A stretch of 64,000 bases of DNA. It comes from an uncultured Clostridia bacterium. Its GTDB lineage: Bacteria > Bacillota > Clostridia > TANB77 > CAG-508. A model generated the notes under the pieces. That model ran no database searches, had not been told where the DNA came from, and saw only the letters and a list, made by a program, of their open reading frames with translations. This document shows, in pieces, positions 3,458 to 43,975 of the stretch (within the stretch, counting starts at the first letter, position 1; each line of letters starts with the position of its first letter). The stretch is from NCBI GenBank assembly GCA_928721565.1, contig OV788638.1:1666-65665 (forward strand), in the 5' to 3' direction. The position numbers were made by a program, and so were the translations under genes.

Positions 3458-3591
3458 GCTTCTTTTCATTCCTTTCCTGGTTTCTGCATTTGTTCTGTTC
3501 TAATAATTATATGCATTGTATCATATAGCCCCAAAAAAGTACACATATTCAAGTGAATATATGTACTTTCTATTTTAGTATGGCTTGATTT

Positions 3592-4924: not shown

Positions 4925-4949
4925 TTTTAGATAAGAGTTTATTTAGAAC
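4925..4949. repeat. Left copy of the 25-bp direct repeat TTTTAGATAAGAGTTTATTTAGAAC flanking the IS
   Basis: Identical 25-mer at 4925-4949 and 6065-6089, directly abutting the IS terminal inverted repeats. Confidence 0.8.
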
Positions 4950-6063: not shown

Positions 6064-6064
6064 A

Positions 6065-6089
6065 TTTTAGATAAGAGTTTATTTAGAAC
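6065..6089. repeat. Right copy of the 25-bp direct repeat flanking the IS
   Basis: Identical to 4925-4949. Confidence 0.8.
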
Positions 6090-6192
6090 AAATAAGAAAA
6101 ATTTTCAATTTTTCTTTGATTTGTTCTCGCCCGATTTGAGTTTTCGACTAAAAGGAGAAAATCTCAAAGGGCTAGCGATTGTAGCTTTTTAT

Positions 6193-11277: not shown

Positions 11278-13210
11278 ATGTGTGGAATTGTTGGTTTTGT
11301 AAATTATAAGCAAAACGTCTCAAAATATAAAAATATTTTATTAAATATGAATAACTCTCTTTCACGAAGAGGCCCTGATGAAGACGGTTATTACACAAAA
11401 GATCATGTTGCATTTGGACACAAAAGATTAATAGTAATTGATCCTGAAGGAGGAAAACAACCAATGACATCAATTGTTCCTTTAAGAACCGGTCCCGAAC
11501 GGTCACTTGTTCAAAACAGAACCGGTCCTTAATGAACAAATGCACCAAAGAGAACCGGTCCCTAATGAGCAACACTGTTCAATTGTGTACAATGGTCAAA
11601 TTTATAATACTAAAGAATTAAGACAAACTTTAGAGGAAAATGGATTTACTTTTGAAGGTCATAGTGATACAGAGGTATTATTAAAAAGTTACATTTTTTA
11701 CGGAAAAGATGTAGTTCACCATCTAAATGGTATTTTTGCTTTTGCTATTTGGGATTCTAAAAATGAAGAACTTTTCATGGCTAGGGATCATTTCGGTGTT
11801 AAGCCTTTATTTTATACTATGCAAAATAATTCTTTTATTTTTGCCTCTGAGATTAAGGCTATATTTCAATATCCTGGTGTTCAAAAAATTTTAGATTCTC
11901 AAGGTGTAGCCGAATTATTTGGTATTGGTCCAGCTCATACTCCTGGAACTACTATTTTTAATAATATTTTTGAATTGAAACCTGCTCATTTTGCAGTTTT
12001 CAACCGTTCAGGTCTTCATCTTGAAAGATATTGGAAATTAAAAAGTGCTCCACATACTGAAAATTTCGTCCAAACTTGTGACCATTTAGAATTTCTTCTA
12101 AAAGATGCAATTACTAGGCAGTTGGTCTCTGATGTCCCTTTATGTACCTTTTTGTCTGGTGGATTAGATTCAAGTATTATTACAAAATATGCATCTGATT
12201 ATTGTTTTGAACATAATCTACCACCACTTGATACTTATTCTATTGACTATGTTGATAATGATAAAAATTTTGTAAAGAGTGACTTTCAGCCTAATTCTGA
12301 TAATTACTACATAAATTTGATGGTTAATAAACTTCATACCTCTCATCATCCTATTGTAATTGATACTCCTGAACTTGCAGAATATCTAGAAGATGCAATG
12401 CTTGCTAGAGATATGCCTGGAATGGCTGATATTGATTCTTCTCTTTTATTATTCTGTAAATATGTTAAGCCTACTGCAACAGTTTCTCTTACAGGGGAAT
12501 GTGCTGATGAAATCTTTGGTGGATATCCATGGTTTTTCCGCGAAGATGCTCTTCAAAGTGGAACTTTCCCTTGGTCTATTGCTATTGATGAACGTCAAAC
12601 TTTACTTAATCCACGCATTGCTCAAAAAGTTAATCTTAAAGATTATATAAACTATAGATACACTGAAAGCCTTGACCAAGTTGAAATTCTTGATACTGAT
12701 TCTTTAGAAACTGCTGAAAAAAGAAAAATTTCACACCTTACACTTAATTGGTTTATGCAGACTCTTCTTGACAGATCTGACAGAATGGCTATGTACAATG
12801 GTTTTGAACTACGTGTTCCATTTTGCGATTATCGTTTAGCTCAATATGTTTGGAATATTCCTTGGGAAATAAAAGCTCTTAATGGTAGAGAAAAAGGATT
12901 GCTTCGCTATGTTTCTCGTAAGTTTTTGCCTGCTGAAATTGTGGATAGAAAAAAGAGCCCTTATCCAAAGACTCATAATCCAACTTATTTGGCAAAGGTA
13001 AAATCAATGCTTTCAACTATTATGGCTAATCCTCATGCTCCTATTAATTATCTTTTAAATAAAGATTATATTTTGAGTATTCTTGAAACTGATGGTAAAG
13101 CTTTCTCTAGACCTTGGTTTGGTCAGTTAATGACTGGTCCTCAATTGATGGCGTATTTGTGCCAGGTTAATATGTGGCTTGAAAGGTATCAGCCTAAAAT
13201 CATTTTCTAA
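11278..13210 (+). pseudogene. asnB: Asparagine synthetase (glutamine-hydrolysing) interrupted by a 101-bp repeat insertion after codon 67; the reading frame is broken
   Basis: The N-terminus MCGIVGFVN (catalytic Cys2; RBS GGAGG 10 nt upstream) continues to ...GGKQPMTS and then into repeat sequence, with a stop at 11530-11532. The remainder of AsnB (CSIVYNGQIYN...HSDTEVLL...LSGGLDSS...) continues in a different frame from 11507. Removing 11478-11578 plus one copy of TCAATTGT restores an in-frame ...KQPMTSIVYNGQIYN. Confidence 0.75.
11478..11578. repeat. Three-unit array of the GAACCGGTCC palindromic repeat inserted inside asnB, flanked by an 8-bp direct duplication TCAATTGT (11470-11477 and 11579-11586)
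   Basis: Cores GAACCGGTCC at 11486-11495, 11519-11528 and 11552-11561. The flanking 8-mers are identical, consistent with a target-site duplication. Confidence 0.8.
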
Positions 13211-13245
13211 AATAATAGAGGTCACAAATTGTGACCCCCTTTTTT

Positions 13246-15475
13246 CTATTTTAATGTAAATGTATCTGATAATAAATTTTCTTCATTTGAACTACCGCCA
13301 ACAAAAACTTTAAACTCTCCCTCTTCTGCTTCAAATTTCATGCTTTCATTCCAAAACTTAAGCATCTCTTCAGATATTTCAAATTTCACACCAATTTCTT
13401 CTTTTGGTAAAATTTTCACCTTTTTAAAGGCTTTCAGCTCTTTTACAGGTCTAACTACGCTTCCTACTAAGTCCTGAATATATAATTGAATAACTTCCTC
13501 TCCTACTACATCACTAACATTTTTGACTTTTACATTAACTACTATTTGAGAATGTTTATCCAAAATTTTATTACTTAGTTTTATATCAGAATAAACAAAT
13601 TTAGAATATGATAGTCCAAACCCAAAAGGATAGTAACTTTCCGCTGGAATATCTTGGTAACGTGAAACATATCTCATATTCTTTTTATACGGTCTTCCTG
13701 TATTATAATGATTATAATAAATTGGGCATTGTCCTACAGCTTGAGGAAAACTCATTGTTAATTTTCCTGATGGATTAGTATCACCAAAAACTACATCTGC
13801 AATTGCATTTGCACCTTCTGTTCCGGGGAACCATACCTCTAATAAACCATCTACTTTTTCAGCAATTCCTCTTAATACTATAGGTCTGCCATTAAATATA
13901 ATAGCTACTATCTTTTTGTTTAATTTTGATAATTGTTCTAACAATCTCTTTTGTATATTCGAAATTTCTATATTTGTTCTTGAACACGCCTCACCTGTTT
14001 GCTTATAATGTTCTCCTATTGCTAATACAATTACATCTACACCTTTGGCTATTTTTACTGCCTCCTCTAAGTATTCCTCTAATTTTTCTTTTTCATTTTC
14101 TAAATGAATTACATTTTCTCCATCGGCTTTTAAAATTTCATTTATCTCTTTTTCTTCTAAAATCTCACTGCCTTTTGCATATAATACATTATCTTTTCCT
14201 ATTTTTGATTCAAAAGCTTCTCTTAAAGTTGTAATTTTTGATTTATCTGAAAACATTGACCATGACCCTAATATAGCAATATTGTCAGCATATGGACCTA
14301 TTAATGCGATTTTTTGATTTTTGCATAATGGCAATATATTATTTTGATTTTTTAACAATACAAATGTTTTTGCAGTTAATTCTCTCGCCTTTTTAAAATT
14401 TTCTTCACTTAATAGAACTTTCTTTTCTAAATAGTAATCCATATTTTTATATGGATTTTCAAATAATCCTAATTTATTTTTTAATTTTAAAACTCTTAAA
14501 ACTGCTTCATCAATTATATCCTCAGAAACTAATCCTTCTTCTACTAATTGTTTCAAATTATTTGAATAGACATTTGACATCATATCAATATCTACTCCAG
14601 CAGTAATCGCTTTATAAGCTGCTTCTTTTTTATCTTTGGCAACACCGTGTTCAATTGTTTCTTCAATTGCCGAATAATCTGAAATAACTATTCCTTTAAA
14701 TCCAAGTTCTTTTCTTAGTAAATCTGTTAATAGCCATTTGTTTACAGTTGCAGGAATTCCATTAATAATATTAAATGATGTCATTATCATTTCTGCACCA
14801 CTATCAATTGCTGATTTATATGCCGGCAAATAATATTGTCTAAATTCTCTTTGCGACATGTCAACTGAGTTATAATCTTTTCCCGCTTCTACCGCTCCAT
14901 ATGCCGCAAAATGTTTTACACACGATATAATTCCATCATCCTTATTGCCATTAACTTCTTTATGTGCTTTAACCATATCTTGAGCAAATATTTGCCCTAA
15001 ATATGGGTCTTCTCCTCCAATAGATTCCATAACTCGTCCCCATCTTGAATCTCTAACTAAGTCTACCATTGGCGAAAAATTAACATTTGCTCCGTGCTAC
15101 TTGTGCCTCTTTTGCAGCTAATTTAGTTGATTCATAAACAACTTTGCTATCCCATGAACATCCTTGAGCAAGTGGTATTGGTAGAACAGTTTTATATCCA
15201 TTTATAATGTCTGCCATAAATAGTAATGGTATTTTTAATCTATTTTTGGCTAAATAATTTTCTTGTATTTTTCTAATTTTTTCAGTTCCAACTACATTTA
15301 ATATTGAACCTACATTATACAGCATTTCATTTGAAATTTCTAAATCTTTTAATGGGCCTGTTGAAACTTCAATATCGTCCATCAAAAAAATTTCTCCTGC
15401 AACCTGCACAAGTTGTCCAATTTTCTCTTCTAAAGTCATTTTTTGTATCAATTCATATAATTCTTTTTCTTTCAT
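13246..15475 (-). pseudogene. Glycoside hydrolase family 3 beta-glucosidase (BglX-like), split by a +1 frameshift near 15092-15096
   Basis: The upstream ORF (131 aa) ends ...AKEAQVARSKC*. The downstream ORF (607 aa) starts MVDLVRDSRWGRV... The alternate frame across the junction reads GANVNFSPMVDLVRDSRWGR, which reconstitutes the GH3 motif. One extra nucleotide in 'gcacggagc' accounts for the shift. Confidence 0.8.
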
Positions 15476-16710
15476 ATTTTTATTGATGCCTCCACTTTTG
15501 TAAATTCTAGAATCTCTAATCCTTTTTTCACATATTTATTTTTCATAAAATACTCCCAAATAACTCCAGATAAGTAGTTTTCAATCATTATCATAGAAAT
15601 ACCTTTATCTATTCCTATACACTCTTCTGAAATCCAAGGTTCTGTATTTTCTAAATTATATGCATCTTTAAAACCATATTTTCCCCAAAGCTTATGAAAA
15701 TTATTGTAGTAATTTTCTACTGCCCTAATACTTATATCTGGTGTAAACACTATCGAACCAATTGCACCACAAGGTGCAACAGTTCCATCATTTTGATTAT
15801 CTAAATCTGCCAGTGCTGGCATTGCACCATATCCTCCAGAATATCCTTTTGGACCTACACATGCAGTAAGTCCCCATGAGTTTTCACCATATGTTTTAAA
15901 TCTATTGCTATTTTTTATACAAAATTTTCTATTAGCAAGAGTCGCTCTTCTGGAATTTTCAAACCAATCAATCCCATTCTTATCTTTTAGCCCTCTAAAG
16001 TCAATCCATGCATGAGAATATTGATATGTAAATAAAGTTCCACAATATGTATAAATTATATTTTTTTCATCTAAGTAGTCTTTTTTATCCTTTTTAAAAA
16101 AATCATATAAAACTTTATTAATCGGATAAGTTGGAGATGCCACTCCTAAAATATATAAAATTAATTGTTCTGCATACATATCCCAATGACCTTCAAATCC
16201 TTTTTCTTTAGAATATCCCATATAAAATTGATTAACCTTTTTGTCTACATACCAATTCCAATTTATTTGTTTATATAATAGCTCCGCCTTTTCTTTAACT
16301 TTTCCTCCAAAATATTCACCAGCAAAAATTGCACCACAAATAAATATAGCTGTATCTATAATTGAATTTTCTGAATTCCATTCTCTTTGTGCAGTTTCCA
16401 TATTAATAAAATGATAAAAAAAACCATTTATATTTTCCAAACTATTTAAAAATGTATCTAATGTCCCCTCTACTCTTTCATTAGCTTTTTCATAAGTAAT
16501 CCAATTTCTTTCCACCCCTATTGCTAATGCAGCTAGCCCATATCCAACAGACGCAATACTTGCAATTTCTGGTGCAAAAGCACTTTTGTCTCTAATCAAT
16601 CCATATCCTTTACTTTTTTTATTATTATTTGCTTCTTTTGTAAAAAAATTATAATCCCCTTGTAACTCTTTTTTTAATATATCTATACCTGTAAGAAATT
16701 TTTTCTTCAT
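15472..16710 (-). CDS. Six-hairpin glycosidase-like protein (glucoamylase/GH144-DUF3131-like; possible endo-beta-1,2-glucanase partner of the adjacent GH3)
   Basis: 412 aa from the ATG at 16710 (RBS GGAGGA 5 nt upstream). Motifs YSHAWIDFRG, WGLTACVGPKGY and GYGAMPALADLD resemble the glucoamylase-like (alpha/alpha)6 fold. Family assignment is from memory and uncertain. Confidence 0.45.
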   Translation of the reverse strand: MKKKFLTGIDILKKELQGDYNFFTKEANNNKKSKGYGLIRDKSAFAPEIASIASVGYGLAALAIGVERNWITYEKANERVEGTLDTFLNSLENINGFFYHFINMETAQREWNSENSIIDTAIFICGAIFAGEYFGGKVKEKAELLYKQINWNWYVDKKVNQFYMGYSKEKGFEGHWDMYAEQLILYILGVASPTYPINKVLYDFFKKDKKDYLDEKNIIYTYCGTLFTYQYSHAWIDFRGLKDKNGIDWFENSRRATLANRKFCIKNSNRFKTYGENSWGLTACVGPKGYSGGYGAMPALADLDNQNDGTVAPCGAIGSIVFTPDISIRAVENYYNNFHKLWGKYGFKDAYNLENTEPWISEECIGIDKGISMIMIENYLSGVIWEYFMKNKYVKKGLEILEFTKVEASIKI

Positions 16711-17060
16711 ATTTTCCTCCATAACATAATTATAGTACATTTCTTTTATTATGTTCAATGGAAATTTTTGAGCATAATTTGCTACCACTTGATATTTATT
16801 CTATAGACTATATTAATAAAAGCATACACTTAGTATGTTTTTCCCCTCACAGGGTAAGCCGTTTAACTTTCCTCATTTACTCGCTTGATTTACTATACAA
16901 GGTTACGTATATCTTTTGGGCTTCGACTTGTTAGGTAGCCTTACCCTTTTGCATAGCATTAATGGCGATATATACCTCCAGTACGGACTTTCACCGATTA
17001 GCTAAACAACATGCCTGTCGCACCATATATAAAAGACTAATATGTAATCTTTTTATTTAA

Positions 17061-17366
17061 ACATTCCTGTCTGGTGGATTAAATTTTTGTAAAGAGTGAT
17101 TTTCAGCATAATTCTGATAATTACTACATGTTTGGAATATTCCTTGGGAAATAAAAGCTCTTAATGGTCGAGAAAAAGGTTTGCTTCGATATGTTTCTCG
17201 TAAATTTTTGCCTGCTGAAATTGTGGATAGAAAAAAGAGTCCTTATCCAAAGACTCACAATCCAACTTATTTGGCAAAGGTAAAATCTATGCTCTCAGAA
17301 ATAATGGCTTACCTTTGCCAAGTTAATATGTGGCTTGAAAAGTATCAGCCTACAATGCATATATAA
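17061..17366 (+). pseudogene. Mosaic remnant of a second asnB copy carrying three internal deletions
   Basis: Near-identical to asnB segments 12140s, 12270-12308, 12846-13010 and 13150-13196 joined head to tail. It translates as ...LRYVSRKFLPAEIVDRKKSPYPKTHNPTYLAKVKSML..AYLCQVNMWLEKYQP. Confidence 0.75.
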
Positions 17367-17554
17367 AAATATGCATATAGAACAAAAGCGGACATTAATA
17401 ACTTTTGTACTTATTAAAACATTTTGAAGTCCGCGTCTTTGTTCGTGCGCGAAATTTGCAAAGCAAATTTCTGTGCAATATATTTATATTATAGGAAGTT
17501 CAGAGAACTTTCCTATAATATAAAATAAGTGGGATATAATGTCCCACTTATAAC

Positions 17555-17896
17555 TTACATATAATATATTAATATTCCTAACAGAATAAGCCCATTGCCT
17601 AAGATTTTCTTTTTAGTAATCTTTTCGCCAAGAATTCTATTACTTAAAATCATTACAAAAAGATAACCCAAAGATTCTATTATTGGCTCGTTTTTATAAG
17701 GAACCCCTTTTAGTCCAAACACTACAAGCACAGTTGAGATTACCATTAAAATATAACCTGTTATTACATATACATTTAAATATTCTTTTAAAACTGAATT
17801 ATAAGATTTGGAAGCACTTTTTTTCAAAATAATTTGAGATATTGAGCTTACCAAAACTGCCAAAATCAATAATACTACATATTTATTCATCTTCAT
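17555..17896 (-). CDS. Small 4-TM DMT/SMR-like membrane protein (GtcA/ArnE-ArnF-like lipid-linked sugar flippase subunit)
   Basis: 113 aa with four predicted TM helices. It is paired with a second small DMT protein and lies downstream of the GT2/GT-C cluster. Confidence 0.5.
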   Translation of the reverse strand: MKMNKYVVLLILAVLVSSISQIILKKSASKSYNSVLKEYLNVYVITGYILMVISTVLVVFGLKGVPYKNEPIIESLGYLFVMILSNRILGEKITKKKILGNGLILLGILIYYM

Positions 17897-18281
17897 TATT
17901 CACTATAATTGTTCCTATTATTACAATTAATACTCCTATTACATTTTTTATTGTTATTGTATCATTAAATATTAGAATTGCCCATACAATTGACCAAAGT
18001 AATCCCATAGCTTTATTTGCATACGCTATTGAAATATCAAATTTTTTTAATAATTGTTGCCAAATAATTGCATATACACCTAAAATCATCATTTCTATTC
18101 CATAGTATAATATAAATTGAAATGACATAAATTCTTGGCCTGATGCAAATTTAGCACAAACAGTTGATAATGTATATATTGCAATAACAATCTGAAGAAT
18201 ACATATATCTTTTAACTTTGTTTTCTTCTTTTTTTCGTTATCTAACTTTACTAATTTTGTTTTATCTACTTCTTCATTCAT
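17883..18281 (-). CDS. Small 4-TM DMT/SMR-like membrane protein (second flippase-like subunit)
   Basis: 132 aa with a hydrophobic EamA-like half-domain. It overlaps the next gene by 14 nt. Confidence 0.5.
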   Translation of the reverse strand: MNEEVDKTKLVKLDNEKKKKTKLKDICILQIVIAIYTLSTVCAKFASGQEFMSFQFILYYGIEMMILGVYAIIWQQLLKKFDISIAYANKAMGLLWSIVWAILIFNDTITIKNVIGVLIVIIGTIIVNNEDE

Positions 18282-18301
18282 TAGAAATTAATTCTCCTTT
18301 T

Positions 18302-19429
18302 CTAAATTGCTAAAATATAATATCCATATCTTGTTGAGCTATCAACAATTTTATGAGAATTTATTTTTTCTATTGGACTCACATAATAAATATATTCCGG
18401 ATGCTCTTTTTTTACTTTTTCTAGTTCTTCTATATCTGCTTCTGTAAAAATGAATTTGATAACCGCCTTTTTAGGTTCTACAACTTTTGTAAAATCTGGG
18501 GCATTTCCTAAAGCAACATCTATAACCATTTTTAAAAAATCATATCCTGTTGAAATTTTTACTAAATCTGAGCCTATGCAATCTCCACCCATTCTAGCCC
18601 CAATTTCAATTATCTTTACTTTTCCATCAGATGTAATTTTAAATTCTGCATGTGATGCTCCATTTGTAATTTGTAAACTATTTAATCCTGCAAAAACTTC
18701 TTTTTTTATTTTCTCTAACATTTCTGAATCTAATCCTGCCGGTTGAGTATGTCCTGTTTCTATAAAATGTGGTGCACCTGTTGTTTGCTTTCTAGTTACT
18801 GTCAACAATGTATGTTTTCCTTTATACGAAATACTTTCAGCACTAAACTCATCTCCAGTTATATATTCTTCTATAATAGCCATTTTTTCAAATGAAACCT
18901 CAACAGCTGTTTCTATTGCTTCTTTTAACTTTCCAGATTTTACTTCTTCCCAATTCTCTATTTTATTGATTGATCTGCTTCCAGACCTATCTGTTGGTTT
19001 TACAATAATTGGCATTGAAAAATCACTTATTTTAGATATTTCTTCTTTTCCTGTACCTGTAACTTTTGCAAATTTAGGAACTGATACTCCATTTGTTAAA
19101 AATGCATTTCGCATTTCATATTTATTTGTAGATAATTTTGTACATTCAAGGCTATTTCCTACAAGTCCTAATTTATCTGCCAAATAGTTTACTGTTAATG
19201 TGGCCAAATCTGATGCAACTGAAATAACCGCATCTGGCTTTATTTCTTTACATTTATCTAATATCTTATCTTTTTCTACTATACTTATTGGATAAAAATA
19301 ATCTGCAAAGTCAGCACCAACAGCACCTTCTACCCAAGCAAATACATGCGTTTCATACCCTAGTTCTTTAGCTTTTATTATGAGTGGCATCTGAAAATTA
19401 TTTGCTCCTATAATAACAATTTTTTTCAT
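18302..19429 (-). CDS. ATP-grasp domain ligase
   Basis: 375 aa with an ATP-grasp fold (MPIIVKPTDRSGSRSI...IEEYITGDEFSAESI...HFIETGHTQPAG...IIEIGARMGGD). Confidence 0.7.
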   Translation of the reverse strand: MKKIVIIGANNFQMPLIIKAKELGYETHVFAWVEGAVGADFADYFYPISIVEKDKILDKCKEIKPDAVISVASDLATLTVNYLADKLGLVGNSLECTKLSTNKYEMRNAFLTNGVSVPKFAKVTGTGKEEISKISDFSMPIIVKPTDRSGSRSINKIENWEEVKSGKLKEAIETAVEVSFEKMAIIEEYITGDEFSAESISYKGKHTLLTVTRKQTTGAPHFIETGHTQPAGLDSEMLEKIKKEVFAGLNSLQITNGASHAEFKITSDGKVKIIEIGARMGGDCIGSDLVKISTGYDFLKMVIDVALGNAPDFTKVVEPKKAVIKFIFTEADIEELEKVKKEHPEYIYYVSPIEKINSHKIVDSSTRYGYYILAI

Positions 19430-19463
19430 TTAGAAACTTCCTTTCTTCCACTTGATTAGTGAA

Positions 19464-20600
19464 TTAATTAGTTTTTTCATAAAATTCTTTTATTGCTTTT
19501 ATTACTTTATCTTGTTCTTTTTGAGTTAATCCATAATACATTGGCAATCTTACTAGCTTTTCACTCTCAGCTGTTGTATATTTATCTTCTCCATTAAACC
19601 TTCCAAATCTCTTTCCTGCAGGAGAATCATGTAATGGAATATAATGAAATACAGATTGTATTTCATTTTCTTTTAAGTATTTAATCAGTGCTGTTCTTTC
19701 TTCTAGATTTTTCGCTTTTATGTAAAACATATGTGCATTATGAGTACTATATTCTGGAACATATTGTAATGTTATTTTTCCACTATTTTCTAGTTCTTGT
19801 AAATTTTCTTTATAATACTCCCATGCAGATAATCTTGCATTATTAATTTCTTCTGCCATTTCAAGTTGAGGATATAAATATGCACAATTTAATTCGCTTG
19901 GCAAATATGATGAACCATAATCTACCCATGTATATTTATCAATTTCTCCTCTAAAGAATTTATTTCTGTTAGTTCCTTTTTCTCTTATTATTTCAGCTCT
20001 TTCTATCAATTCTGGATCATTTATTACAATAGCTCCACCTTCTCCCATGCTGTAATTTTTAGTTTCGTGAAAACTATAACATCCAAGATCTGCAATTGTC
20101 CCTAAATATTTTTCTTTGTATTTAGACATAAAACCTTGTGCTGCATCTTCTACAACTTTTAAATTATGTTTCTTAGCAATTTTCATAATTTTATCCATAT
20201 CTGGTGAAATTCCTGCATAGTGAACTACTGCAATCGCTTTAGTTTTAGGCGTTATTGCTTCTTCAATTTTATTTTCATCAATATTCATTGTTTTAGGATT
20301 TATATCTACAAAAACAACTTTTGCCCCAACCATAATAAATGCATCTGCTGTTGATACAAATGTATATGATGGCATTATTACTTCATCTCCTGGTTGTAAA
20401 TTCAATAAAATTGCAGTCATCTCAAGAGCATCAGTACAAGATGTTGTTAATAATACTTTTGTGGCATTAAATTTATCTTCCATCCATTTACTACATTTTT
20501 TTGTAAATTCTCCATCTCCACAAATTTTTCTACTTTTTATTGCTTTTTTTATACAATCTAATGAACCTTCTACATAAATTGGTATATTAAATCCTATCAT
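19464..20600 (-). CDS. DegT/DnrJ/EryC1/StrS-family PLP-dependent sugar aminotransferase (ArnB-like)
   Basis: 378 aa with motifs TTSCTDALEMT, VIMPSYTFVSTA and SFHETKNYSMGEGG (PLP-lysine region). Confidence 0.85.
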   Translation of the reverse strand: MIGFNIPIYVEGSLDCIKKAIKSRKICGDGEFTKKCSKWMEDKFNATKVLLTTSCTDALEMTAILLNLQPGDEVIMPSYTFVSTADAFIMVGAKVVFVDINPKTMNIDENKIEEAITPKTKAIAVVHYAGISPDMDKIMKIAKKHNLKVVEDAAQGFMSKYKEKYLGTIADLGCYSFHETKNYSMGEGGAIVINDPELIERAEIIREKGTNRNKFFRGEIDKYTWVDYGSSYLPSELNCAYLYPQLEMAEEINNARLSAWEYYKENLQELENSGKITLQYVPEYSTHNAHMFYIKAKNLEERTALIKYLKENEIQSVFHYIPLHDSPAGKRFGRFNGEDKYTTAESEKLVRLPMYYGLTQKEQDKVIKAIKEFYEKTN

Positions 20601-20621
20601 TTTTATCCTCTTCTTTCTATT

Positions 20622-21965
20622 TTAGTTATAAGCCGGTATTACATATGAGAATATCGCTTTAAATGATATTGCAATAATTAATAACATTATCATTATAATT
20701 ATAATATTTCTTATTTTTTCTGACTTTATAAATTTTTCTAGCATTGTCTGAATTCCATTTACCACAAAATACATAAATGGTATTATAATTCCCATTATAT
20801 ATCTACCCTGTGGTTGAAAATCACTTGTATATGAATATATAATACTTAAAAGTATTGGTATAATAATTGCTATTACAAAAATATAATTTAAAATATATTT
20901 ACTTTTTTCCTCTTTTTTATAAATAAATAAATCTTTAAATTTTAATAAACATCCAAGTCCTCCTATTGACCAAAGGCTCAAATATGAATAATATATTTTA
21001 TTTGACGTTAATATACTCTGATATCCGAATATTCCCACAAAACTTTTGACTGTTGTCTTAGCCCATGCATCTTCATTTAACATGTGCCAAATGCTTTCAT
21101 TACTACTTTCTGGTGTTTTTCTTACTGATGGCTTATATTGTTCTAAAGCATATTTATCTCCATATTCATTTTGTGTCTTGGTTCCTAATATATCTCCATC
21201 ATAAATTATTGCATTCCTTACAAACCACCAACCAGCAACTGCAAAAGCTACACTTGCTACTATTAAAGCTTTTTTTGCAATTTCTTTTGCATCCATTTTG
21301 TTCAAAACAGCTGAACTTAAGCAAATTAATACACTACATAGAATATATCCATATGCATTGTAATATGTTAAAGCACAAAAACCAACTGCTCCACCTAGTA
21401 ATATACAATGTTTTGTTTTCCAATTGCTTTCCAATCCTAATATCCATAAATAAATTATCATAGATATTGCTAAAATTGCAGTTGAATCATTATTTATATA
21501 CGAAGCTAAAAATGCAGTTATTGGCTGAAATGCAATAAATACTATAAATAAATATTTGTAAATTCCTTTATCTTTAAAAAGTTTATTCGCAATCTTTATT
21601 ACAAAGTATATTGTCAATGTCATACTTATTGTACTTACAAGCCTTGCCGCTACTACTAATGCAAATTGTTGTGTAGTAAAAATTGATGCTATCTTTACAA
21701 ATACTGCACAAATCATATATGTAAGAATTGGTTGAAACGCATACGAAATTCCCCAAGCTGAATCTCGTATACTTTCATCTCTTCCATCTGGTATTGAATT
21801 ATGTTCTGCAATATATTTACAAATATCCCATTTCATTTTTTCGTCTGGGCATGAATTATATGGTTGTGATACTGTCCATATTAAATAATAACAAAATAAA
21901 CCAATTAAAAATATAGCCATTACAATTTTCTTATTTTTTTTGCATATTTCTAAAATTTTATCCAT
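20622..21965 (-). CDS. GT-C fold membrane glycosyltransferase (ArnT/YfhO/PMT-like)
   Basis: 447 aa and more than 10 TM helices. An N-proximal periplasmic loop carries a DE motif (SCPDEKMKWDICKYIAEHNSIP), as in GT-C enzymes that use polyprenyl-phosphate sugar donors. Confidence 0.6.
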   Translation of the reverse strand: MDKILEICKKNKKIVMAIFLIGLFCYYLIWTVSQPYNSCPDEKMKWDICKYIAEHNSIPDGRDESIRDSAWGISYAFQPILTYMICAVFVKIASIFTTQQFALVVAARLVSTISMTLTIYFVIKIANKLFKDKGIYKYLFIVFIAFQPITAFLASYINNDSTAILAISMIIYLWILGLESNWKTKHCILLGGAVGFCALTYYNAYGYILCSVLICLSSAVLNKMDAKEIAKKALIVASVAFAVAGWWFVRNAIIYDGDILGTKTQNEYGDKYALEQYKPSVRKTPESSNESIWHMLNEDAWAKTTVKSFVGIFGYQSILTSNKIYYSYLSLWSIGGLGCLLKFKDLFIYKKEEKSKYILNYIFVIAIIIPILLSIIYSYTSDFQPQGRYIMGIIIPFMYFVVNGIQTMLEKFIKSEKIRNIIIIMIMLLIIAISFKAIFSYVIPAYN

Positions 21966-25823: not shown

Positions 25824-25880
25824 TTTCACCTCTTTGTCTCTCAACATTTTTATTATACAATATTTTTATTTTTTTGGCAA

Positions 25881-26004
25881 TGATCATTTGTGATCATTTG
25901 GGATCATTTGGGACCGGTTCTCTTTTGAACAATGTTCATTGAGGACCGGTTCTCTCTTGACCAGTGTTCATTGAGGACCGGTTCTTAAACGAACAAAATG
26001 AACA
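25881..26004. repeat. Array of about 4 tandem units of the 31-bp palindromic repeat (GGACCGGTTC cores at 25911, 25943, 25975) preceded by degenerate TGATCATTTG copies
   Basis: tgttcattgaGGACCGGTTCtct..tgaaca units spaced about 32 bp apart, lying between the uvrA start and the upstream gene's terminator. Confidence 0.85.
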
Positions 26005-26007
26005 TAT

Positions 26008-26048
26008 AAAAAAGCTATTATACTAAAAGATAGTATAATAACTTTTTT
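26008..26048 (-). terminator. Rho-independent terminator of the 26062-27747 gene
   Basis: Perfect 10-bp stem TATTATACTA-aaaga-TAGTATAATA, followed on the minus strand by GCTTTTTTAT. Confidence 0.8.
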
Positions 26049-26061
26049 TGTTTATTAATGT

Positions 26062-27902: not shown

Positions 27903-27968
27903 TGTTCATTTGGGACCGGTTCTCTTTTGAACAATGTTCATTTGGGACCGGTTCTTAAATGATCACTT
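27903..27968. repeat. Two tandem units of the palindromic repeat (cores at 27914 and 27945)
   Basis: tgttcatttGGGACCGGTTCtcttttgaaca a tgttcatttGGGACCGGTTCttaaatgatca. The second unit supplies the last 10 codons and the TGA stop of the bofA-like ORF. Confidence 0.85.
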
Positions 27969-28213
27969 TTAAGATTATTAAAAAAATTGCCCCTGGTATG
28001 CCCAGTAAACCGTACTAAAACTGAAGTAAGTAAATTTAACCCTATATGAAATCCCCATATACCACCAATTAAATTAATAGCATAAATAAGTACTCCTCCT
28101 AAAATTGAATTAAAAACTAACTTCAAAATTTTCTTTATTGGAATTATAAAAATTCTTCCAACGATAAATAAAATACATATACAAGATATTATTATAAGAA
28201 CATTTATGTCCAT
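27938..28213 (-). CDS. bofA: BofA-like small membrane protein (pro-sigma-K processing inhibitor family); C-terminus derived from a repeat unit
   Basis: 91 aa and 2 TM helices. LGGVLIYAINLIGGIWGFHIGLNLLTSVLVRFTG resembles BofA. It is adjacent to a yaaL-like gene, as in the Bacillus yaaL-bofA arrangement. The tail ...KSDHLRTGPK* is encoded by the repeat. Confidence 0.5.
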   Translation of the reverse strand: MDINVLIIISCICILFIVGRIFIIPIKKILKLVFNSILGGVLIYAINLIGGIWGFHIGLNLLTSVLVRFTGHTRGNFFNNLKSDHLRTGPK

Positions 28214-28592: not shown

Positions 28593-28704
28593 CTTTGTAT
28601 GCCCCTTTCAAAATAAAATTCAATAATCTTTTACTTATAACTTTCCAATATTATTATATGCAATATATAACAAAAATATCCCCTGCGTTCCAAAGCACCA
28701 AAGA

Positions 28705-28768
28705 GCACCAGAAAGAACCGGTCCCAAATGAACATGGGTCAAAAGAGAACCGGTCCCTAATGAACACT
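28705..28768. repeat. Two units of the palindromic repeat (cores GAACCGGTCC at 28715 and 28746)
   Basis: gaaaGAACCGGTCCcaaatgaaca tgggtcaaaagaGAACCGGTCCctaatgaaca, immediately downstream of the cation antiporter gene. Confidence 0.85.
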
Positions 28769-29775: not shown

Positions 29776-31065
29776 ATGATAGATATTAAATTAATTAGAG
29801 AAAACCCAGAATTAGTAAAAGAAAATATTAGAAGAAAATTTCAAGATCAAAAACTAGTTTTAGTTGATGAAGTATTGGAATTAGATAAGAAAAACAGAGA
29901 AGCCAAATTGAATGGTGATAATTTAAGAGCTGACAGAAAAAAAACTAGTGAACAAGTTGGACAGCTTATGAAATCTGGTCAAAAAGATGAAGCAGAAAAA
30001 TTAAAACAAGAAGTTCAAAAAATTAATGTTGCACTTGAAGAAAATGAAGCACTTGAAGAAAAATATTCAAATGAAATTAAAGAAAGAATGATGAAAATTC
30101 CAAACATTATGGATGCAAGTGTTCCTATTGGAAAAGACGACAGTGAAAATGTAGAAGTTCAAAAATTTGGAGAACCAACCAAACCTGATTATGAAATTCC
30201 TCATCATGCTGACATAATAAATACTTTTAACGGTTTAGATAAAGACAGTGCTGGAAGAACTAGTGGAATGGGATTTTATTACTTAATTGGAGATATTGCA
30301 AGATTACATGAGGCAATGCTTGCTTATGCTAGAGATTATATGATAAATAATGGATTTACTTATTGTATTCCACCATTCATGATTCGTTCAGACGTTGTTA
30401 AAGGCGTTATGAGTTTTGAAGAAATGGATGCAATGATGTATAAAATTGAAAATGAAGATTTATTCTTAATTGGTACTTCTGAACACTCAATGATAGGAAG
30501 ATTCAAAGACCAAATTATTAAAAAATCTGATTTACCAATAACAATGACTTCATATTCTCCTTGTTTTAGAAAAGAAATTGGTTCACATGGTTTAGAGGAA
30601 AGAGGATTATATCGTGTTCATCAATTTGAAAAACAAGAAATGATAGTTCTTTGCGAACCAGAAGATTCTATGAATTGGTATAATAAGATGTGGAAATTAA
30701 GTGTAGACTTATTTAGAAACTTCAATGTTCCAGTCAGACAACTTGACTGTTGTTCTGGTGACTTAGCAGACTTAAAAGTAAAATCATGTGATATAGAAGC
30801 TTGGAGTCCACGTCAACAAAAATATTTTGAAGTTTGTAGTTGTTCTACATTAGGAGATGCTCAGGCTAGACGTTTAGGAATTCGTGCTAAAGGAGAAAAA
30901 GGAAACTATTTTGTTCATACTTTAAACAATACAGTTGTTGCTACACCTAGAGGTCTAATTGCAGTTATTGAGAATAATTATAATGAAGATGGAACTGTTA
31001 CTGTTCCAGAAGTTTTAAGACCTTATATGGGAGGAACTGCAAAATTAATACCTGTAAATAAATAA
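29776..31065 (+). CDS. serS: Seryl-tRNA synthetase
   Basis: Start trimmed to MIDIKLIRENPELVKENIRRKF (RBS AAAGGA). An N-terminal coiled coil is followed by a class II core (FRKEIGSHGLEERGLYRVHQFEKQE...GRTSGMGFY). Confidence 0.95.
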   Translation: MIDIKLIRENPELVKENIRRKFQDQKLVLVDEVLELDKKNREAKLNGDNLRADRKKTSEQVGQLMKSGQKDEAEKLKQEVQKINVALEENEALEEKYSNEIKERMMKIPNIMDASVPIGKDDSENVEVQKFGEPTKPDYEIPHHADIINTFNGLDKDSAGRTSGMGFYYLIGDIARLHEAMLAYARDYMINNGFTYCIPPFMIRSDVVKGVMSFEEMDAMMYKIENEDLFLIGTSEHSMIGRFKDQIIKKSDLPITMTSYSPCFRKEIGSHGLEERGLYRVHQFEKQEMIVLCEPEDSMNWYNKMWKLSVDLFRNFNVPVRQLDCCSGDLADLKVKSCDIEAWSPRQQKYFEVCSCSTLGDAQARRLGIRAKGEKGNYFVHTLNNTVVATPRGLIAVIENNYNEDGTVTVPEVLRPYMGGTAKLIPVNK

Positions 31066-31130
31066 TCCATTTAGGACCGGTTCTTTTTTGATCATTGCAC
31101 ATTTAAGAACCGGTCCCAAATGATCAAAAG
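31066..31130. repeat. Inverted pair of palindromic repeat units (GGACCGGTTC at 31074; GAACCGGTCC at 31107)
   Basis: tccatttaGGACCGGTTCttttttgatca ttgcacatttaaGAACCGGTCCcaaatgatca, between serS and engB. Confidence 0.85.
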
Positions 31131-31146
31131 AAAGGAATTATAAGTT

Positions 31147-31728
31147 ATGATAGTAAAAAATCCAAGATTTGAAATATCTGCAGTAAGAGAAAATCAATAT
31201 CCCAAAAATGGACTACCAGAAGTTGTTTTAGTTGGAAAGTCTAATGTTGGAAAATCTAGTTTTATAAATACTATGATTAATAGAAAGAAACTCGCTCGTA
31301 CAAGCAGTGAACCTGGAAAAACTCGTCAATTAAATTTTTATAATATTGATGACAAGTTTTATTTTGTTGATTTGCCTGGTTATGGTTATAGTAAAATGTC
31401 AAAACAAGAACAAGTTAAGGTCGGAGAATTTATTGAACATTACTTAAAACATCGTCAAGAAATTTGCCTTATTATATTTTTAGTTGATATTAGACATGAC
31501 CCTACTTCTAATGATTTTTTAATGTATGATTATGTTATAAGAAGTGGTCTTCCTTGTATGATTTTAACTAACAAGGCCGATAAAATTGCAAAAACTAAAG
31601 TGGATGATGCCACAAAAAATATTCAAAAACAGCTTAATCCTATTGGAGATATTACTACTCTTCCTTTTTCTTCTGAAAGAAAAATTTATAGTGATGATGC
31701 TTGGAATGTTATTGAATCTTATTTATAA
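31147..31728 (+). CDS. engB: Ribosome biogenesis GTPase YsxC/EngB
   Basis: 193 aa, G1 VVLVGKSNVGKSS, G3 DLPGYG, G4 TNKADK. It sits downstream of serS. Confidence 0.9.
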   Translation: MIVKNPRFEISAVRENQYPKNGLPEVVLVGKSNVGKSSFINTMINRKKLARTSSEPGKTRQLNFYNIDDKFYFVDLPGYGYSKMSKQEQVKVGEFIEHYLKHRQEICLIIFLVDIRHDPTSNDFLMYDYVIRSGLPCMILTNKADKIAKTKVDDATKNIQKQLNPIGDITTLPFSSERKIYSDDAWNVIESYL

Positions 31729-36352: not shown

Positions 36353-36544
36353 GTTATAACCTCCTTAAAATTTTGATTCAATCTAAAAATAGATTTAATT
36401 ATGTTTTGATTTAAAATCTCATATTGAAAAAACAATAAAAATTTGAATATAAAAATAATCTTTATAAAAAATCTGTCTACATTATACCTTCTCATTTAGC
36501 CATTGTCAAGAAGTTTCTTTCGACAAATTTCGACTCAATTGCAC

Positions 36545-36571
36545 AGAACAGAACCGGTCCCTAATGAACAC
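36545..36571. repeat. Single palindromic repeat unit (GAACCGGTCC at 36551)
   Basis: acagaacaGAACCGGTCCctaatgaaca, preceded by CAATTG, just downstream of the last gene of the SipW locus. Confidence 0.8.
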
Positions 36572-37803: not shown

Positions 37804-37964
37804 TTTTTCTTCCTTCCTTTTCTTTTATTTTCTTTTTTATATTTGTAAATTTTATAAACATATTTACTCTTTTGTACCTATTTCTTGTTGCACAAAAGTT
37901 TTAGTTTGTAAATTGTTCATTTGAGAACCAATCCCTAATGACTCAAATGGCACAAACTTGAATT

Positions 37965-40337: not shown

Positions 40338-40946
40338 TTATATATTGTAATTATCTCTAAGCTTTTTAATCTCATATTTTTTTCTTTTTATTTTTCTGTT
40401 ATTTTTTTGGTTATCTCTAAAATTCATTAAGAAATAAACAATAATAACAAAAATAAAAATATTAATAAACCCCCTAACGTTTTGTATATAATGAACTACT
40501 TTTCCCAATTTAGGGACAGTGCATAATACTTTACCATAAATATTTTTGCTTTCCACTAAATCTTTATCTTGAACTTCATTGTTATCACCTTTAGTAATAA
40601 ACCTAACATCTCCCTTTTCATCTGTACTTTTTACTATTCTATGTGAAATCACCCTGTTTTCCTGTTTAAATGTTATAATATCACCTATTTGCAAATCACT
40701 AATTTTGCACTTTTTAACAATTGCCAAATCATCTTTATAAAACGTAGGCTCCATACTTTCAGAAATTATATTAAACATATATATTCCCAAAATATGTGTA
40801 TTTTCTTCAAATGACAAAATTAGATTTATTATAAAAAGTACTATTAAGATTACAAGTATTATACACTTAAAAATTTTTCTTGTCACTTTTTTATTTCTAA
40901 TTTTACTAGAAATTTTTTCAACATCATATTCCAATTTTGCTCTCAC
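40338..40946 (-). CDS. sipW: SipW-type signal peptidase I paralog 2, with a basic C-terminal tail
   Basis: ISESMEP (Ser), ISHRIV (His), ITKGDNNE (Asp) and a C-terminal TM helix, followed by a K/R-rich tail. Confidence 0.8.
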   Translation of the reverse strand: MRAKLEYDVEKISSKIRNKKVTRKIFKCIILVILIVLFIINLILSFEENTHILGIYMFNIISESMEPTFYKDDLAIVKKCKISDLQIGDIITFKQENRVISHRIVKSTDEKGDVRFITKGDNNEVQDKDLVESKNIYGKVLCTVPKLGKVVHYIQNVRGFINIFIFVIIVYFLMNFRDNQKNNRKIKRKKYEIKKLRDNYNI

Positions 40947-42755: not shown

Positions 42756-43403
42756 TTATACTGTACTATCTGGTATATATTGATTAAATTTCATAGTTGC
42801 TCTATATTTTAAAGTTGTATGTAAATCATTTGAATCACTATTAGTCTCTCCTCTGAACTGAGTATCTTCTTTATTATTCATTGTATTTTTATCTCCATCA
42901 TTCCATCTAAACAAAACCCTAATCTCACGTTTTTTCTCTCCAGCACTATTAACATCAGTATCTGGATCAATTACTCCTGTTATTGTATTTGTCTCAGTTA
43001 TAGTAGAAGTATCTCCATCAATCACTTCATAACCATAAATCTCAAAATCAGTTAGTTTTGTAGTATTTAATTGCTCTATAGAAAAATCATACTCAAAAGC
43101 CACATCAACATAAGTATAATCTATTAACATTTCAAAATAACCCTCTCGTCCCGGAACCAAAGTATTATTACTATTCATATTTTCATTTTCAACAAATATT
43201 GGTTGCATAACTTCAGTAAGAGATGATTCTTCATGTATAGTGTGATCATTTACCTTAATCAACCATCTTTTAATATGTGTATCGTAAGTAGTATCAACTT
43301 TTTCAAAATATCTAGCATATGTTCTTTGTATTGATATAATAGTAATAAGTAAAGAAATAATGCATAATATTTGTAAAGCTCTTAATTTAGTTTTCTTTTT
43401 CAT
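42756..43403 (-). CDS. Secreted protein with a SipW-cognate-like signal (TasA-class), 215 aa
   Basis: N-terminus ...ILCIISLLITIISIQRTYARYFEKVDT. It overlaps the downstream sipW paralog by 4 nt. Confidence 0.55.
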   Translation of the reverse strand: MKKKTKLRALQILCIISLLITIISIQRTYARYFEKVDTTYDTHIKRWLIKVNDHTIHEESSLTEVMQPIFVENENMNSNNTLVPGREGYFEMLIDYTYVDVAFEYDFSIEQLNTTKLTDFEIYGYEVIDGDTSTITETNTITGVIDPDTDVNSAGEKKREIRVLFRWNDGDKNTMNNKEDTQFRGETNSDSNDLHTTLKYRATMKFNQYIPDSTV

Positions 43404-43975
43404 CTACTTTCCCTTTCATATCTATCTTGTCTTTCTCTAAAAATTCTAAATCCTATATATATAGATAATGGTACTATTGCTCCAAAATAAAATACATATT
43501 TATTATTTAGCAATCTACAAATAAATGACAAAATGTACATTTTACTTTGAACCACTCCATTTATTTGATGTGCATATACAACAGGATCTTCTAAGTTATT
43601 AGCAATACCCTGAGTATGAAAAACTCTTTGTCCATCAATTTCTTCAATATCTTTTACTCTATGTGTTACCAAAATTCCATTTACAGCCCCAGTTTCACCT
43701 TGATATGTTACATCTTCACCGACCTGTATTTTATTAGTATCTGTTTCTTTTACTAAAATAACATCACCAACTTGGTATTTAGGAATCATACTTCCTGTTT
43801 GAACTCTAAAAATTCTATATCCAAAAAATGATTGTTTATTATTTGTTACTTTTTGTATAACTATTACTATACAAATTAAAATAATTATAGCAGTTATTAT
43901 CTTTGATATCACTTTCCATGCAATATGTAATATTTTCTTTATCTGGTCATTTGGGACCGGTTCTCTTTTGTCCAT
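43400..43975 (-). CDS. sipW: SipW-type signal peptidase I paralog 3; the first 10 codons, including the ATG, are encoded by a palindromic repeat unit
   Basis: VQTGSMIP (Ser), VTHRV (His), QGIANNLEDP. The N-terminus MDKREPVPNDQ is the translation of a GAACCGGTCC unit (43944-43975). Confidence 0.75.
   Translation of the reverse strand: MDKREPVPNDQIKKILHIAWKVISKIITAIIILICIVIVIQKVTNNKQSFFGYRIFRVQTGSMIPKYQVGDVILVKETDTNKIQVGEDVTYQGETGAVNGILVTHRVKDIEEIDGQRVFHTQGIANNLEDPVVYAHQINGVVQSKMYILSFICRLLNNKYVFYFGAIVPLSIYIGFRIFRERQDRYERESR
43944..43975. repeat. Single palindromic repeat unit that forms the 5' end of the sipW paralog 3 ORF
   Basis: On the minus strand, ATGGACAAAAGAGAACCGGTCCCAAATGACCAG, which sits two nucleotides downstream of the preceding gene's stop codon. 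Confidence 0.8.

Follow-up and report, generated by a model that had tools for sequence, protein, structure and literature searches.

The stretch of DNA analysed here, hereafter the window, comprises 64 kb of chromosomal DNA from a spore-forming, low-GC Firmicute and encodes BofA, DUF2508/YaaL, UvrA, SerRS, EngB, GltX, RNase J, PNPase, S15, pyruvate kinase, and AsnB. At positions 25881-26004, between the terminator of a gene for a 561-aa protein and the promoter of uvrA, it carries an array of short palindromic repeats. Units of the same family are spread over nine loci of the window as singles, head-to-tail arrays with a period of 30-33 bp, and convergent pairs. Eight of these loci are extragenic, the exception being an array within asnB. 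The loci, their parts, and the starts of the core sequence are as follows.

11475..11571, minus strand: head-to-tail array of three units (cores 11486, 11519, 11552) interrupting the coding sequence of asnB, to which it is antisense
25881..26004, plus strand: array upstream of uvrA, antisense to uvrA
25901-25931, 25933-25963, and 25965-25995: the units upstream of uvrA
25881-25910: three 10-bp left-arm mini-repeats before these units, with one extra arm copy after the units
25880-25852, minus strand: uvrA promoter, TTGCCA-17-TATAAT
27903..27965, plus strand: two head-to-tail units at the 3' end of bofA, whose ORF continues into the terminal unit
28704-28734 and 28736-28766 (locus 28681..28766), minus strand: two head-to-tail units, sense
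28681-28703: degenerate right-arm mini-repeats
31064..31126, no single strand: convergent pair filling the serS-engB spacer, predicted to fold as one long hairpin
36540..36570, minus strand: single unit, sense, directly 3' of an intrinsic terminator (36602-36572)
37914..37944, minus strand: decayed single unit with core GGATTGGTTC, sense, just past the stop of the 37965-38750 gene
43944..43974, plus strand: single antisense unit, some 28 nt before the likely start of a SipW-type signal peptidase gene
51864..51916, no single strand: convergent pair, one of its units shortened, in the gap from the stop codon of a 4015-aa ORF to the 112-aa ORF start
Core GGACCGGTTC, plus strand: 25911, 25943, 25975, 27913, 27945, 31074, 43954, 51874
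Core GGACCGGTTC, minus strand: 11486, 11519, 11552, 28715, 28747, 36551, and 31107
Decayed core GGATTGGTTC, minus strand: 37925, arms recognisable
Decayed core GGACCGGTCT: 51897, inverted partner of 51874

The earlier note on this DNA had proposed a palindromic repeat family of about 16 copies at nine or more loci, and our counts bear this out. The exact core GGACCGGTTC occurs 15 times in 64 kb compared with 0.07 expected from dinucleotide-preserving shuffles, so it is more frequent than composition predicts; none of 100 shuffles reached 15 copies, the shuffle maximum being 2. Versions with exactly one mismatch are absent from the 64-kb window, and a search allowing two mismatches adds two decayed copies with recognisable arms, which brings the total to 17. 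The degenerate copy described earlier is one of these and is real. The listing of single, tandem, and inverted copies was right about their arrangement and accurate to within 1 nt in its coordinates (27913 instead of 27914, and 28747 instead of 28746), and the proposed placement at gene boundaries holds for eight of the nine loci and not for the 11475-11571 array inside asnB.

Every core in the window lies within a recognisable hairpin unit of 31-33 bp, in which a fixed GGACCGGTTC centre stands between two arms. The consensus of the 15 copies, T-G-(T)-T-C-A-T-T-n-G / GGACCGGTTC / T-n-T-T-T-T-G-(A)-n-C-A, fits the previously proposed 31-bp formula TGTTCA-N4-core-N5-TGAACA; the left arm and the T immediately after the core are near-invariant in these copies, and the right arm is looser. 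The contrast between a GC-rich core and AT-rich surroundings, also pointed out before, is clear, with 70% GC in the core and 23-33% in the window. The arms themselves have been multiplied locally, at 25881-25910 and 28681-28703, and the terminal unit at 27903-27965 is a TTAAA variant that forms a near-perfect 31-nt palindrome.

The unit is a hairpin with a fixed apical core. The structure.(((((((..((((.....))))..))))))) was tested on an ungapped alignment of 74 distinct units, in which paired cells account for 86%. Double, compensatory changes were found in 73 cells, compared with 31.7 in shuffles (none of 500 shuffles reached 73), and the co-variation score was 0.258 compared with at most 0.137 for slid partner columns. 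Four pairs of the outer stem alternate among UA, CG, AU, and GC, the conserved parts of the stem being the outermost T-G...C-A, whose TG...CA termini are nearly invariant across units, and one C:G pair. A related species carries the arm type TGCACCG...CGGTGCA where the window has TGTTCA...TGAACA, with an identical core, and further arm types (TGTACCAAAA/TTTTGGTACA, TGTCCTT/AAGGACA, TGCTCG/CGAGCA, and TGTACCA/TGGTACA) likewise keep their complementarity. Two arm types can occur together in one array (contig L157).

The two strands of the unit are not equivalent. In the apical stem GGGA/TTCT, pair 12:22 is G.U in 72 of the 74 units and never G:C or A:U, and this unrepaired wobble means that the full hairpin is available on one strand only. 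Predicted RNA fold energies reflect the asymmetry, with -8.2 kcal/mol for the plus strand vs -3.2 kcal/mol for its complement in the window type and -14.1 vs -10.6 kcal/mol in the TGCACC type; DNA folding gives the same strand trend. Convergent pairs are predicted to form long hairpins of -15 to -34 kcal/mol. We read the unit as one that would act in single-stranded form, since a double-stranded dimer site would conserve the arm bases and would give no reason for a fixed wobble.

A second regularity concerns placement. Units were oriented with GGACCGGTTC on top, and the neighbour of the left arm was scored. At about 17 independent loci the unit is antisense and its left arm lies 14-31 nt upstream of a start codon that carries a Shine-Dalgarno sequence, with the gene pointing away from the unit; the sense arrangement upstream of a start was seen at one locus (L173; binomial p ~1e-4). 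The antisense leader loci include the following.

Window: engB, the 112-aa ORF, sipW
Relatives: uvrA, an AAA-ATPase/PD-(D/E)XK gene
Metagenome: clpB, smc, parA, mnmE, fabZ, htpG, pheT, a fabG-like gene, and others

The convergent pairs of the window illustrate both ends of this arrangement. In the serS-engB spacer, the plus-strand unit (31064-31094) adjoins the serS stop and the minus-strand unit (31096-31126) stops 20 nt short of the engB ATG; at the other pair, 24 nt separate the end of the plus-strand unit (51864-51894) from the ATG of ORF 51501-51839 (112 aa), and the partial inverted unit (core 51897-51906) begins 5 nt past the stop of the 4015-aa ORF. For the SipW-type signal peptidase, the probable true start is Met21, at ~43915, while the longest ORF would translate the 43944-43974 unit as ...REPVPN.... 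In the metagenome loci, a CIRCE operator and a TTGCAA-17-TATAAT promoter end 7 nt before the clpB array, and a TTGAAA-17-TATAAA promoter lies upstream of the smc array. From these recognisable promoters we infer that arrays at leader loci would be transcribed as part of the 5' leader.

Sense units in the window lie at 3' ends, with the left arm facing a stop codon or terminator (28766, 36570, 37944, 31064, 51916). The left arm at 28766 adjoins the stop codon of a Na/Ca-exchanger gene, and the 36540-36570 unit is followed downstream by a perfect sigma-70-like promoter (36509-36481). Across all sequence examined, adjacent cores form 28 tandem pairs, 11 convergent pairs with the left arms outward (about 5 independent loci), and no divergent pair. 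A strong rule emerged from these comparisons, namely that the left arm faces the nearest gene end. Within the window, 8 units lie on the plus strand and 7 on the minus strand; there is no replication-strand bias, and the placement rule is therefore tied to the local genes. Most simply, the orientation bias may reflect a survival filter, in which a stable hairpin in the mRNA beside the ribosome-binding site would be lost. The units were not called as intrinsic terminators by terminator prediction, so the case for this filter is made by the difference in fold energy. Alternatively, the copying machinery may itself select such targets, inserting units, for instance, 3' of a T-rich run. The earlier note had missed this main regularity of the family, in how units are oriented and placed relative to start codons.

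Exact look-ups of the window UvrA and EngB returned no match, and relatives were reached through UvrA and EngB homologues. The closest ones all come from human-gut metagenomes, including samples from the Hadza and from Nepal. Six syntenic contigs from a related species (L119-L124), with EngB 96% identical and DNA 68-90% identical to the window, each hold 2-7 exact cores in their 17-21 kb. Scanning metagenomes with TGTTCATTNNGGACCGGTTCT recovered 31 loci, 27 of them low-GC and none overlapping the window, which places units at many other sites in related genomes. A scan of genome contigs with TCATTNNGGACCGGTTC proved too unspecific, with at least 118 chance single matches in high-GC genomes; among the matches listed, the only true relatives were L066 and L096, both uncultured Clostridia MAGs from the Hadza gut. 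Full-unit patterns found no copy in 2.9 million viral contigs, scans of the viral contigs for tandem or convergent core pairs returned only unrelated high-GC matches, and blastn with a two-unit array found no match among plasmid and phage records. A literature search for the core sequence retrieved only unrelated eukaryotic primers.

Comparison among these relatives shows copying, in-place amplification, and decay of units. The evidence consists of empty spacers, a decayed orthologue, copy-number change between strains, shared junction blocks, and the multiplied arms. The spacers corresponding to the 27913 and 28715 arrays are free of units in relatives, and L119 and L123 have a decayed orthologue of the 36551 unit. 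At the clpB locus the number of units is 2 or 3 depending on the strain, and at clpB and smc the single-base core mutations found in the unit proximal to the ribosome-binding site differ between strains. Exact blocks of 32-37 nt across the unit junction are common to unrelated loci. In the orthologues of the engB pair in L119-L124, both cores are intact and the arms and flanks have diverged, which fits either homogenisation within the genome or selection on the core. Cores are missing from 20 kb of a more distant relative (EngB 91% identical), which does carry a related perfect hairpin with a different GC-rich stem. Among the relatives, no filled site could be cleanly paired with an empty one at high flank identity.

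The array within asnB is a special case. The gene starts at 11278 (MCGIVGF...) and runs for 64 codons up to the three-unit array, after which the downstream part resumes in the +1 frame; an 8-bp direct repeat, TCAATTGT, flanks the array (11470-11477 and 11579-11586), and deleting 109 nt restores one frame. The number of units is three in the window, two each in L184, L185, and L186, and none in L183, where the loop is empty. In L184 the two units are in frame and read ...KKEPVPNCTF..., and the asnB genes of P0128 and P0129 contain two or three decayed in-frame units. L185 and L186, the clade closest to the window, have their two units out of frame, and the loop lengths in the window (121 nt), L185 (88 nt), and L186 (97 nt) all equal 1 mod 3. 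Between these three lineages, at a dS of ~0.6-1.3, dN/dS is 0.11-0.16 over the first 63 codons and 0.03-0.06 over the remainder, values in line with those between intact genes. Every one of these lineages has at least one unit that gives ...ACC GGT CCC R... in the upstream frame, and the +1 frame is open thereafter.

Because the frames of the two parts differ by one nucleotide in three diverged lineages and strong purifying selection nevertheless acts on both, the out-of-frame arrays suggest either recoding or a two-piece enzyme. Excision of equal-length units was rejected as a means of frame repair, as removing 3n nt from the 121 nt of the window leaves 1 mod 3, and phase variation by unit number was likewise discarded because it repairs the frame in neither the window nor L185 (periods of 33 and 36 nt). 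As a counter-point, in L187 the first part of asnB is missing and the breakpoint lies within a decayed unit; either the DNA was truly rearranged there or the assembly is chimeric. When proteins were searched with the peptide for in-frame arrays, four tiny ORFs were all that matched.

In function and behaviour, the closest match among known systems is the REP/BIME/REPIN group. REPs, like the units described here, are short imperfect palindromes (21-65 nt, compared with 31-33 in this family), high in copy number and almost always extragenic; they occur as singles, clusters, and inverted pairs that form long hairpins, and they constitute genome-specific families that are homogenised within the genome and occasionally have in-frame genic copies (PMC6006769, PMC2817692). 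However, REPs are defined as imperfect palindromes with a conserved 5' GT[AG]G at the foot of the hairpin (PMC6006769, PMC2817692), and this foot, the feature that marks a canonical REP, is absent here: neither GTAG nor GTGG occurs at either foot in 74 units, where the foot is instead T-G-N-N-C (TGTTCA, TGCACC, TGTACC, TGTCCT). The fixed part of the unit is the apex of the hairpin, whereas in REPs it is the foot. Clusters are mostly head-to-tail (28 pairs), in contrast to the alternating arrangement of BIMEs, although 11 convergent pairs exist, and units are strikingly concentrated just upstream of ribosome-binding sites. The host, a low-GC Firmicute lineage, also differs from the hosts of REPs with their RAYT (TnpA-REP) transposases, such as E. 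coli, Pseudomonas, and Stenotrophomonas.

To our knowledge, repeats of the REP type, like their transposases, are hardly known outside Proteobacteria and a few further phyla, and a literature search on REP and RAYT in Firmicutes found no paper. For the association with a RAYT/IS200-like transposase envisaged in the earlier note, no RAYT was found in the 444 kb searched (the window plus related loci), and tblastn with IS200 and IS608 TnpA for Y1/HUH transposases was negative in the same sequence. This is a weak negative, as RAYT genes are single-copy genes flanked by the repeats (REPtrons) and such a gene could easily lie outside 444 kb. No mobilising enzyme was found there.

Other systems share individual traits with this family. 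The subterminal hairpins of IS200/IS605 elements and of their non-autonomous derivatives, the PATEs, are likewise strand-specific, of similar size, recognised as single-stranded DNA, and free of target duplication, but here no transposase, guide, or target tetranucleotide was found and there is no replication-strand bias. Rickettsia palindromic elements are palindromic selfish DNA translated in frame within housekeeping genes (PMC10969869), and in asnB orthologues the in-frame units encode ...EPVPN...; these elements are the best analogue for translated in-frame copies, although they measure ~100-150 bp and are commonly intragenic, while intragenic copies here are rare. BOX, RUP, and SPRITE of Streptococcus and the Correia elements of Neisseria are also small intergenic repeats in transcribed spacers that can alter the expression of neighbours; unlike the present units, they are 100-200 bp long, modular or bounded by inverted repeats with duplications, and have neither a fixed 10-bp apical core nor 32-bp arrays. 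ToxI-like arrays similarly consist of tandem direct repeats of ~34-40 nt transcribed immediately upstream of a gene, but here the genes that follow are housekeeping genes instead of ToxN/AbiQ-type nucleases, and there are probably dozens of loci per genome, with single and inverted units as well.

Several further candidates were considered and set aside. A type III toxin-antitoxin system does not agree with downstream genes such as uvrA, engB, clpB, smc, parA, pheT, and fabZ, none of them of the ToxN/AbiQ type. A LexA box at the arm junction (GAAC-N2/3-GTTC) would have the wrong and a variable spacing, and in centromere sites of the ParB/Noc/RacA type the arms would be conserved instead of co-varying. 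A CRISPR array is at odds with cores that lie 30-33 nt apart with only two arms between them and no unique spacers. As for known RNA families, Rfam 15 gave no match at the gathering threshold at the repeats of the window, and the region 25850-26060 yielded only noise (E of 0.07 or worse, far below gathering scores).

Taken together, our findings make it probable, at moderate confidence, that the unit is a lineage-specific, structurally distinct, REP/BIME-like selfish hairpin repeat of uncultured gut Clostridia. One strand folds into an outer stem (6-10 bp) that may take any sequence as long as pairing holds, followed by a small internal loop and an apical GGGA/TTCT stem, which includes the obligatory G.T wobble and closes a CCGGT loop. 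A trans-acting protein would recognise the fixed, asymmetric apex, with the arms supplying structure alone. Units would be copied to new sites as singles or as blocks of two or more, most plausibly through recognition of a single-stranded DNA hairpin, and slippage or unequal exchange would then expand them locally into head-to-tail arrays, which would become homogenised within the genome and later be lost to decay. They would survive where they are tolerated, that is, at gene 3' ends, in terminator-promoter gaps, and chiefly in transcribed leaders upstream of the Shine-Dalgarno sequence, where nearly all persisting units would be oriented so that the mRNA carries the weakly folding strand. The regular distance to the Shine-Dalgarno sequence could, as a counter-point, reflect function or target choice instead of a survival filter.

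A cis-element of the host under selection is a less expected explanation, which we hold to be unlikely while keeping it in view. In the leader orientation, a co-varying stem of 6-10 bp in the mRNA would show the fixed GAACCGGUCCC in a loop of ~19 nt just upstream of the Shine-Dalgarno sequence, where binding by a protein or by a self-complementary ACCGGU loop-loop contact would tune the translation or mRNA stability of many housekeeping genes; in another variant, the core would be a double-stranded site for a nucleoid or regulatory protein. Such an element would be in keeping with a core that stays fixed as the arms co-vary, with a constant distance and orientation relative to start codons, and with arrays that lie downstream of promoters and are hence transcribed. 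The 15 perfect cores of the window, with none at one mismatch, and the engB pair, whose cores are intact in both the window and diverged relatives, form a further counter-point that could mean host selection on the core. However, the downstream genes (clpB, smc, parA, mnmE, fabZ, htpG, pheT, engB, uvrA, sipW) have no common theme, presence varies between close relatives at orthologous spacers, and strains differ in the point mutations that their cores bear at the same locus. Copies also occur at 3' ends in the opposite orientation, in a terminator-promoter gap, and inside a coding sequence, the position relative to the promoter is not fixed, and the strand favoured by the conserved G.T wobble is the one absent from the mRNA. 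For the fixed core itself, a binding role at the protein or RNA level may be entertained, at a fairly small chance.

The remaining explanations concern mobility of another kind, drive, or error. Had the units been classical MITEs, that is, two abutted terminal inverted repeats with TG...CA ends of a DDE-type IS, moved in trans with target-site duplications, then the nearly invariant TG...CA termini, the 8-bp direct repeat around the asnB array, and the presence of an rve-type IS and a Transposase_31 gene in the window would find a ready place. We nevertheless think this very unlikely, because the asnB repeat is the only one seen and units at leader, terminator, or stop-codon loci have no duplications around them, 31-33 bp is below known MITE sizes, several arm types per array are a misfit with one transposase per end sequence, and the wobble asymmetry would be meaningless for double-stranded ends. 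The rve IS of the window was rejected as a MITE parent, since neither of its ends (4947-4977, 6037-6067) resembles the arms. An exact 10-bp core at about one copy per 4 kb, common to related species and in some cases forming inverted pairs after genes, recalls a DNA uptake signal or another site enriched by drive through biased uptake or recombination, as with Neisseria DUS and Pasteurellaceae USS. Uptake would need neither co-varying hairpin arms nor head-to-tail arrays with a 32-bp period, DUS and USS are common inside genes whereas the copies here are almost all extragenic, whole units instead of bare cores are gained and lost, and the relative with 91% identical EngB lacks the core in 20 kb, so that this explanation is extremely improbable. 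An assembly or adaptor artefact, which has nothing but the odd composition in its favour, can be considered negligible, as the core occurs with lineage-specific arms, and in decayed and in-frame translated copies, at orthologous positions in independent assemblies from different projects.

These results refine the interpretation offered in the earlier note. Its label of a MITE/REP-like mobile element stands as regards REP-like expanding behaviour, which is visible in gain and loss, the asnB insertion, copy-number change, arm co-variation, and recurring junction blocks; it does not stand as regards MITEs, given the size, the lack of duplications at leaders, and the unrelated IS ends, or as regards canonical REPs, given the missing GT[AG]G. 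The uptake-signal alternative that it mentioned is hard to square with arms that co-vary as a hairpin, with tandem arrays, and with copies that are nearly all extragenic, and its own reservation about assembly artefacts fails, since the core is found with different arms at orthologous and non-orthologous sites in many independent assemblies. Of the checks it had suggested, the look for empty sites in relatives was successful (the 27913 and 28715 spacers and the L183 asnB loop are unit-free), and hairpin prediction shows that the unit folds in a strand-specific way. A bolder combination of these elements, which we regard as quite doubtful, is that the family represents a new class of strand-specific hairpin replicator, whose non-RAYT enzyme would read the wobble apex and place units left-arm-first at gene ends, and that ribosomes would pass the asnB arrays by recoding, perhaps through a +1 shift at the CCC-R codon present in frame in each of them, or the gene would function in two pieces.

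A dense family of such distinct structure, in human-gut Clostridia that are abundant but uncultured, would extend the range over which persistent intragenomic replicators are known. Its units would provide a strain-typing marker and a cause of assembly breaks in these MAGs. Those within the leaders of core genes such as clpB, smc, pheT, engB, and uvrA may shape expression, and the fixed apex points to a specific protein partner. Finally, asnB offers a natural test of how a hairpin repeat is tolerated or bypassed inside an essential-type enzyme.

The asnB gene is divided by a repeat array, and the 3' portion of the gene lies in the +1 frame. The following loci were compared:

Window 11278-13210: asnB
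L185 318-2217 and L186 1019-2927: asnB on contigs from the clade closest to the window
L187 1089-2756: asnB on another contig

In three diverged lineages the array forms a loop of 121, 88 and 97 nt, each 1 mod 3. Every asnB array contains CCC-R as an in-frame codon, and the +1 frame is open from that point on. Despite the split, both portions show dN/dS values of 0.03-0.16, as in intact orthologues. In L187, the first asnB portion is missing and the breakpoint falls within a decayed unit. At another gene, the bofA frame (window 27938-28213) runs on into the terminal repeat unit, within which it stops (...LRTGPK*), so that the repeat now stands in place of the gene's original 3' end and stop.

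Gene content also varies at the following sites:

Window 13211-17500, including 16859-17021: stretch of ~4.3 kb downstream of asnB, missing in L186, that holds a GH3 gene truncated at its N-terminus, a glucoamylase-like gene and fragment D1-D4 of a group II intron
L119-L123 about 1800-3250, versus L122 3126-3302: variable AAA-ATPase-like / PDDEXK_9 gene adjoining uvrA
Window 31065-31147, versus L119 8353-10000: serS-engB spacer

The ~4.3-kb stretch is bordered by duplicates of the asnB 3' end (12846-13027 and 17128-17309; 182 nt, 93% identity), and L186, which lacks it, is elsewhere 98% identical to window 17518-21558. In the related contig L122, uvrA immediately adjoins asnB, and three repeat units lie where the two meet. 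Repeat units or doublets stand on both sides of the AAA-ATPase-like / PDDEXK_9 gene in four relatives, whereas L122 lacks the gene and retains one doublet at the site, which suggests that exchange between units leads to gain or loss of this gene cassette. Between serS and engB, relatives carry purA (adenylosuccinate synthetase), whereas the window has only a convergent repeat pair; in the more distant relative L125 the site is occupied by a purA fragment, three additional genes and a complete purA.

Other mobile-element and repeat-bearing features of the window are as follows:

3570-4893: Transposase_31 (YhgA/Rpn-like PD-(D/E)XK) gene, between perfect 14-bp inverted repeats CTATTTTAGTATGG / CCATACTAAAATAG (3570-3583 and 4869-4882)
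4927-6091: rve-type (IS481-like) insertion sequence with imperfect 31-bp ends (4947-4977 and 6037-6067), with a direct repeat of unusual length (24 bp), TTTAGATAAGAGTTTATTTAGAAC, on either side
38895-63969: 4015-aa ORF, containing 87-nt tandem repeats (61766-62635), and an unannotated gene cluster upstream
40338-40946, 43400-43975 and 48356-48889: three SipW/S24-S26-type signal peptidase genes scattered among the unannotated genes of that cluster

The region of the 4015-aa ORF and signal peptidases may serve in the assembly of surface fibres or appendages.

Two further features concern the unit arms and a set of sister hairpins:

Window 25881-25910 and 28681-28703, and L180 1400-1430: arm mini-repeats (GATCATTTGK, three copies; TGGTGCTCTT, two; TTAAATGTGCA, two)
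L155 7011-7086, L096 730-784 and L125 about 5105-5185: sister hairpins

Beside arrays in the window and in L180, the unit arms themselves recur as mini-repeats of 9-11 bp, a pattern consistent with hairpin-induced slippage. The first sister hairpin is a perfect palindrome, GGGACCGTTTCTTTTCG/CGAAAAGAAACGGTCC, and the second reads GGGGTCGGTCC-T7...A6-GGACCGACCCC, preceded by TGTTCATTTG. These hairpins, whose GC-rich stems are related, occur in the same genomes, a hint of a broader superfamily or of an origin from terminator hairpins.
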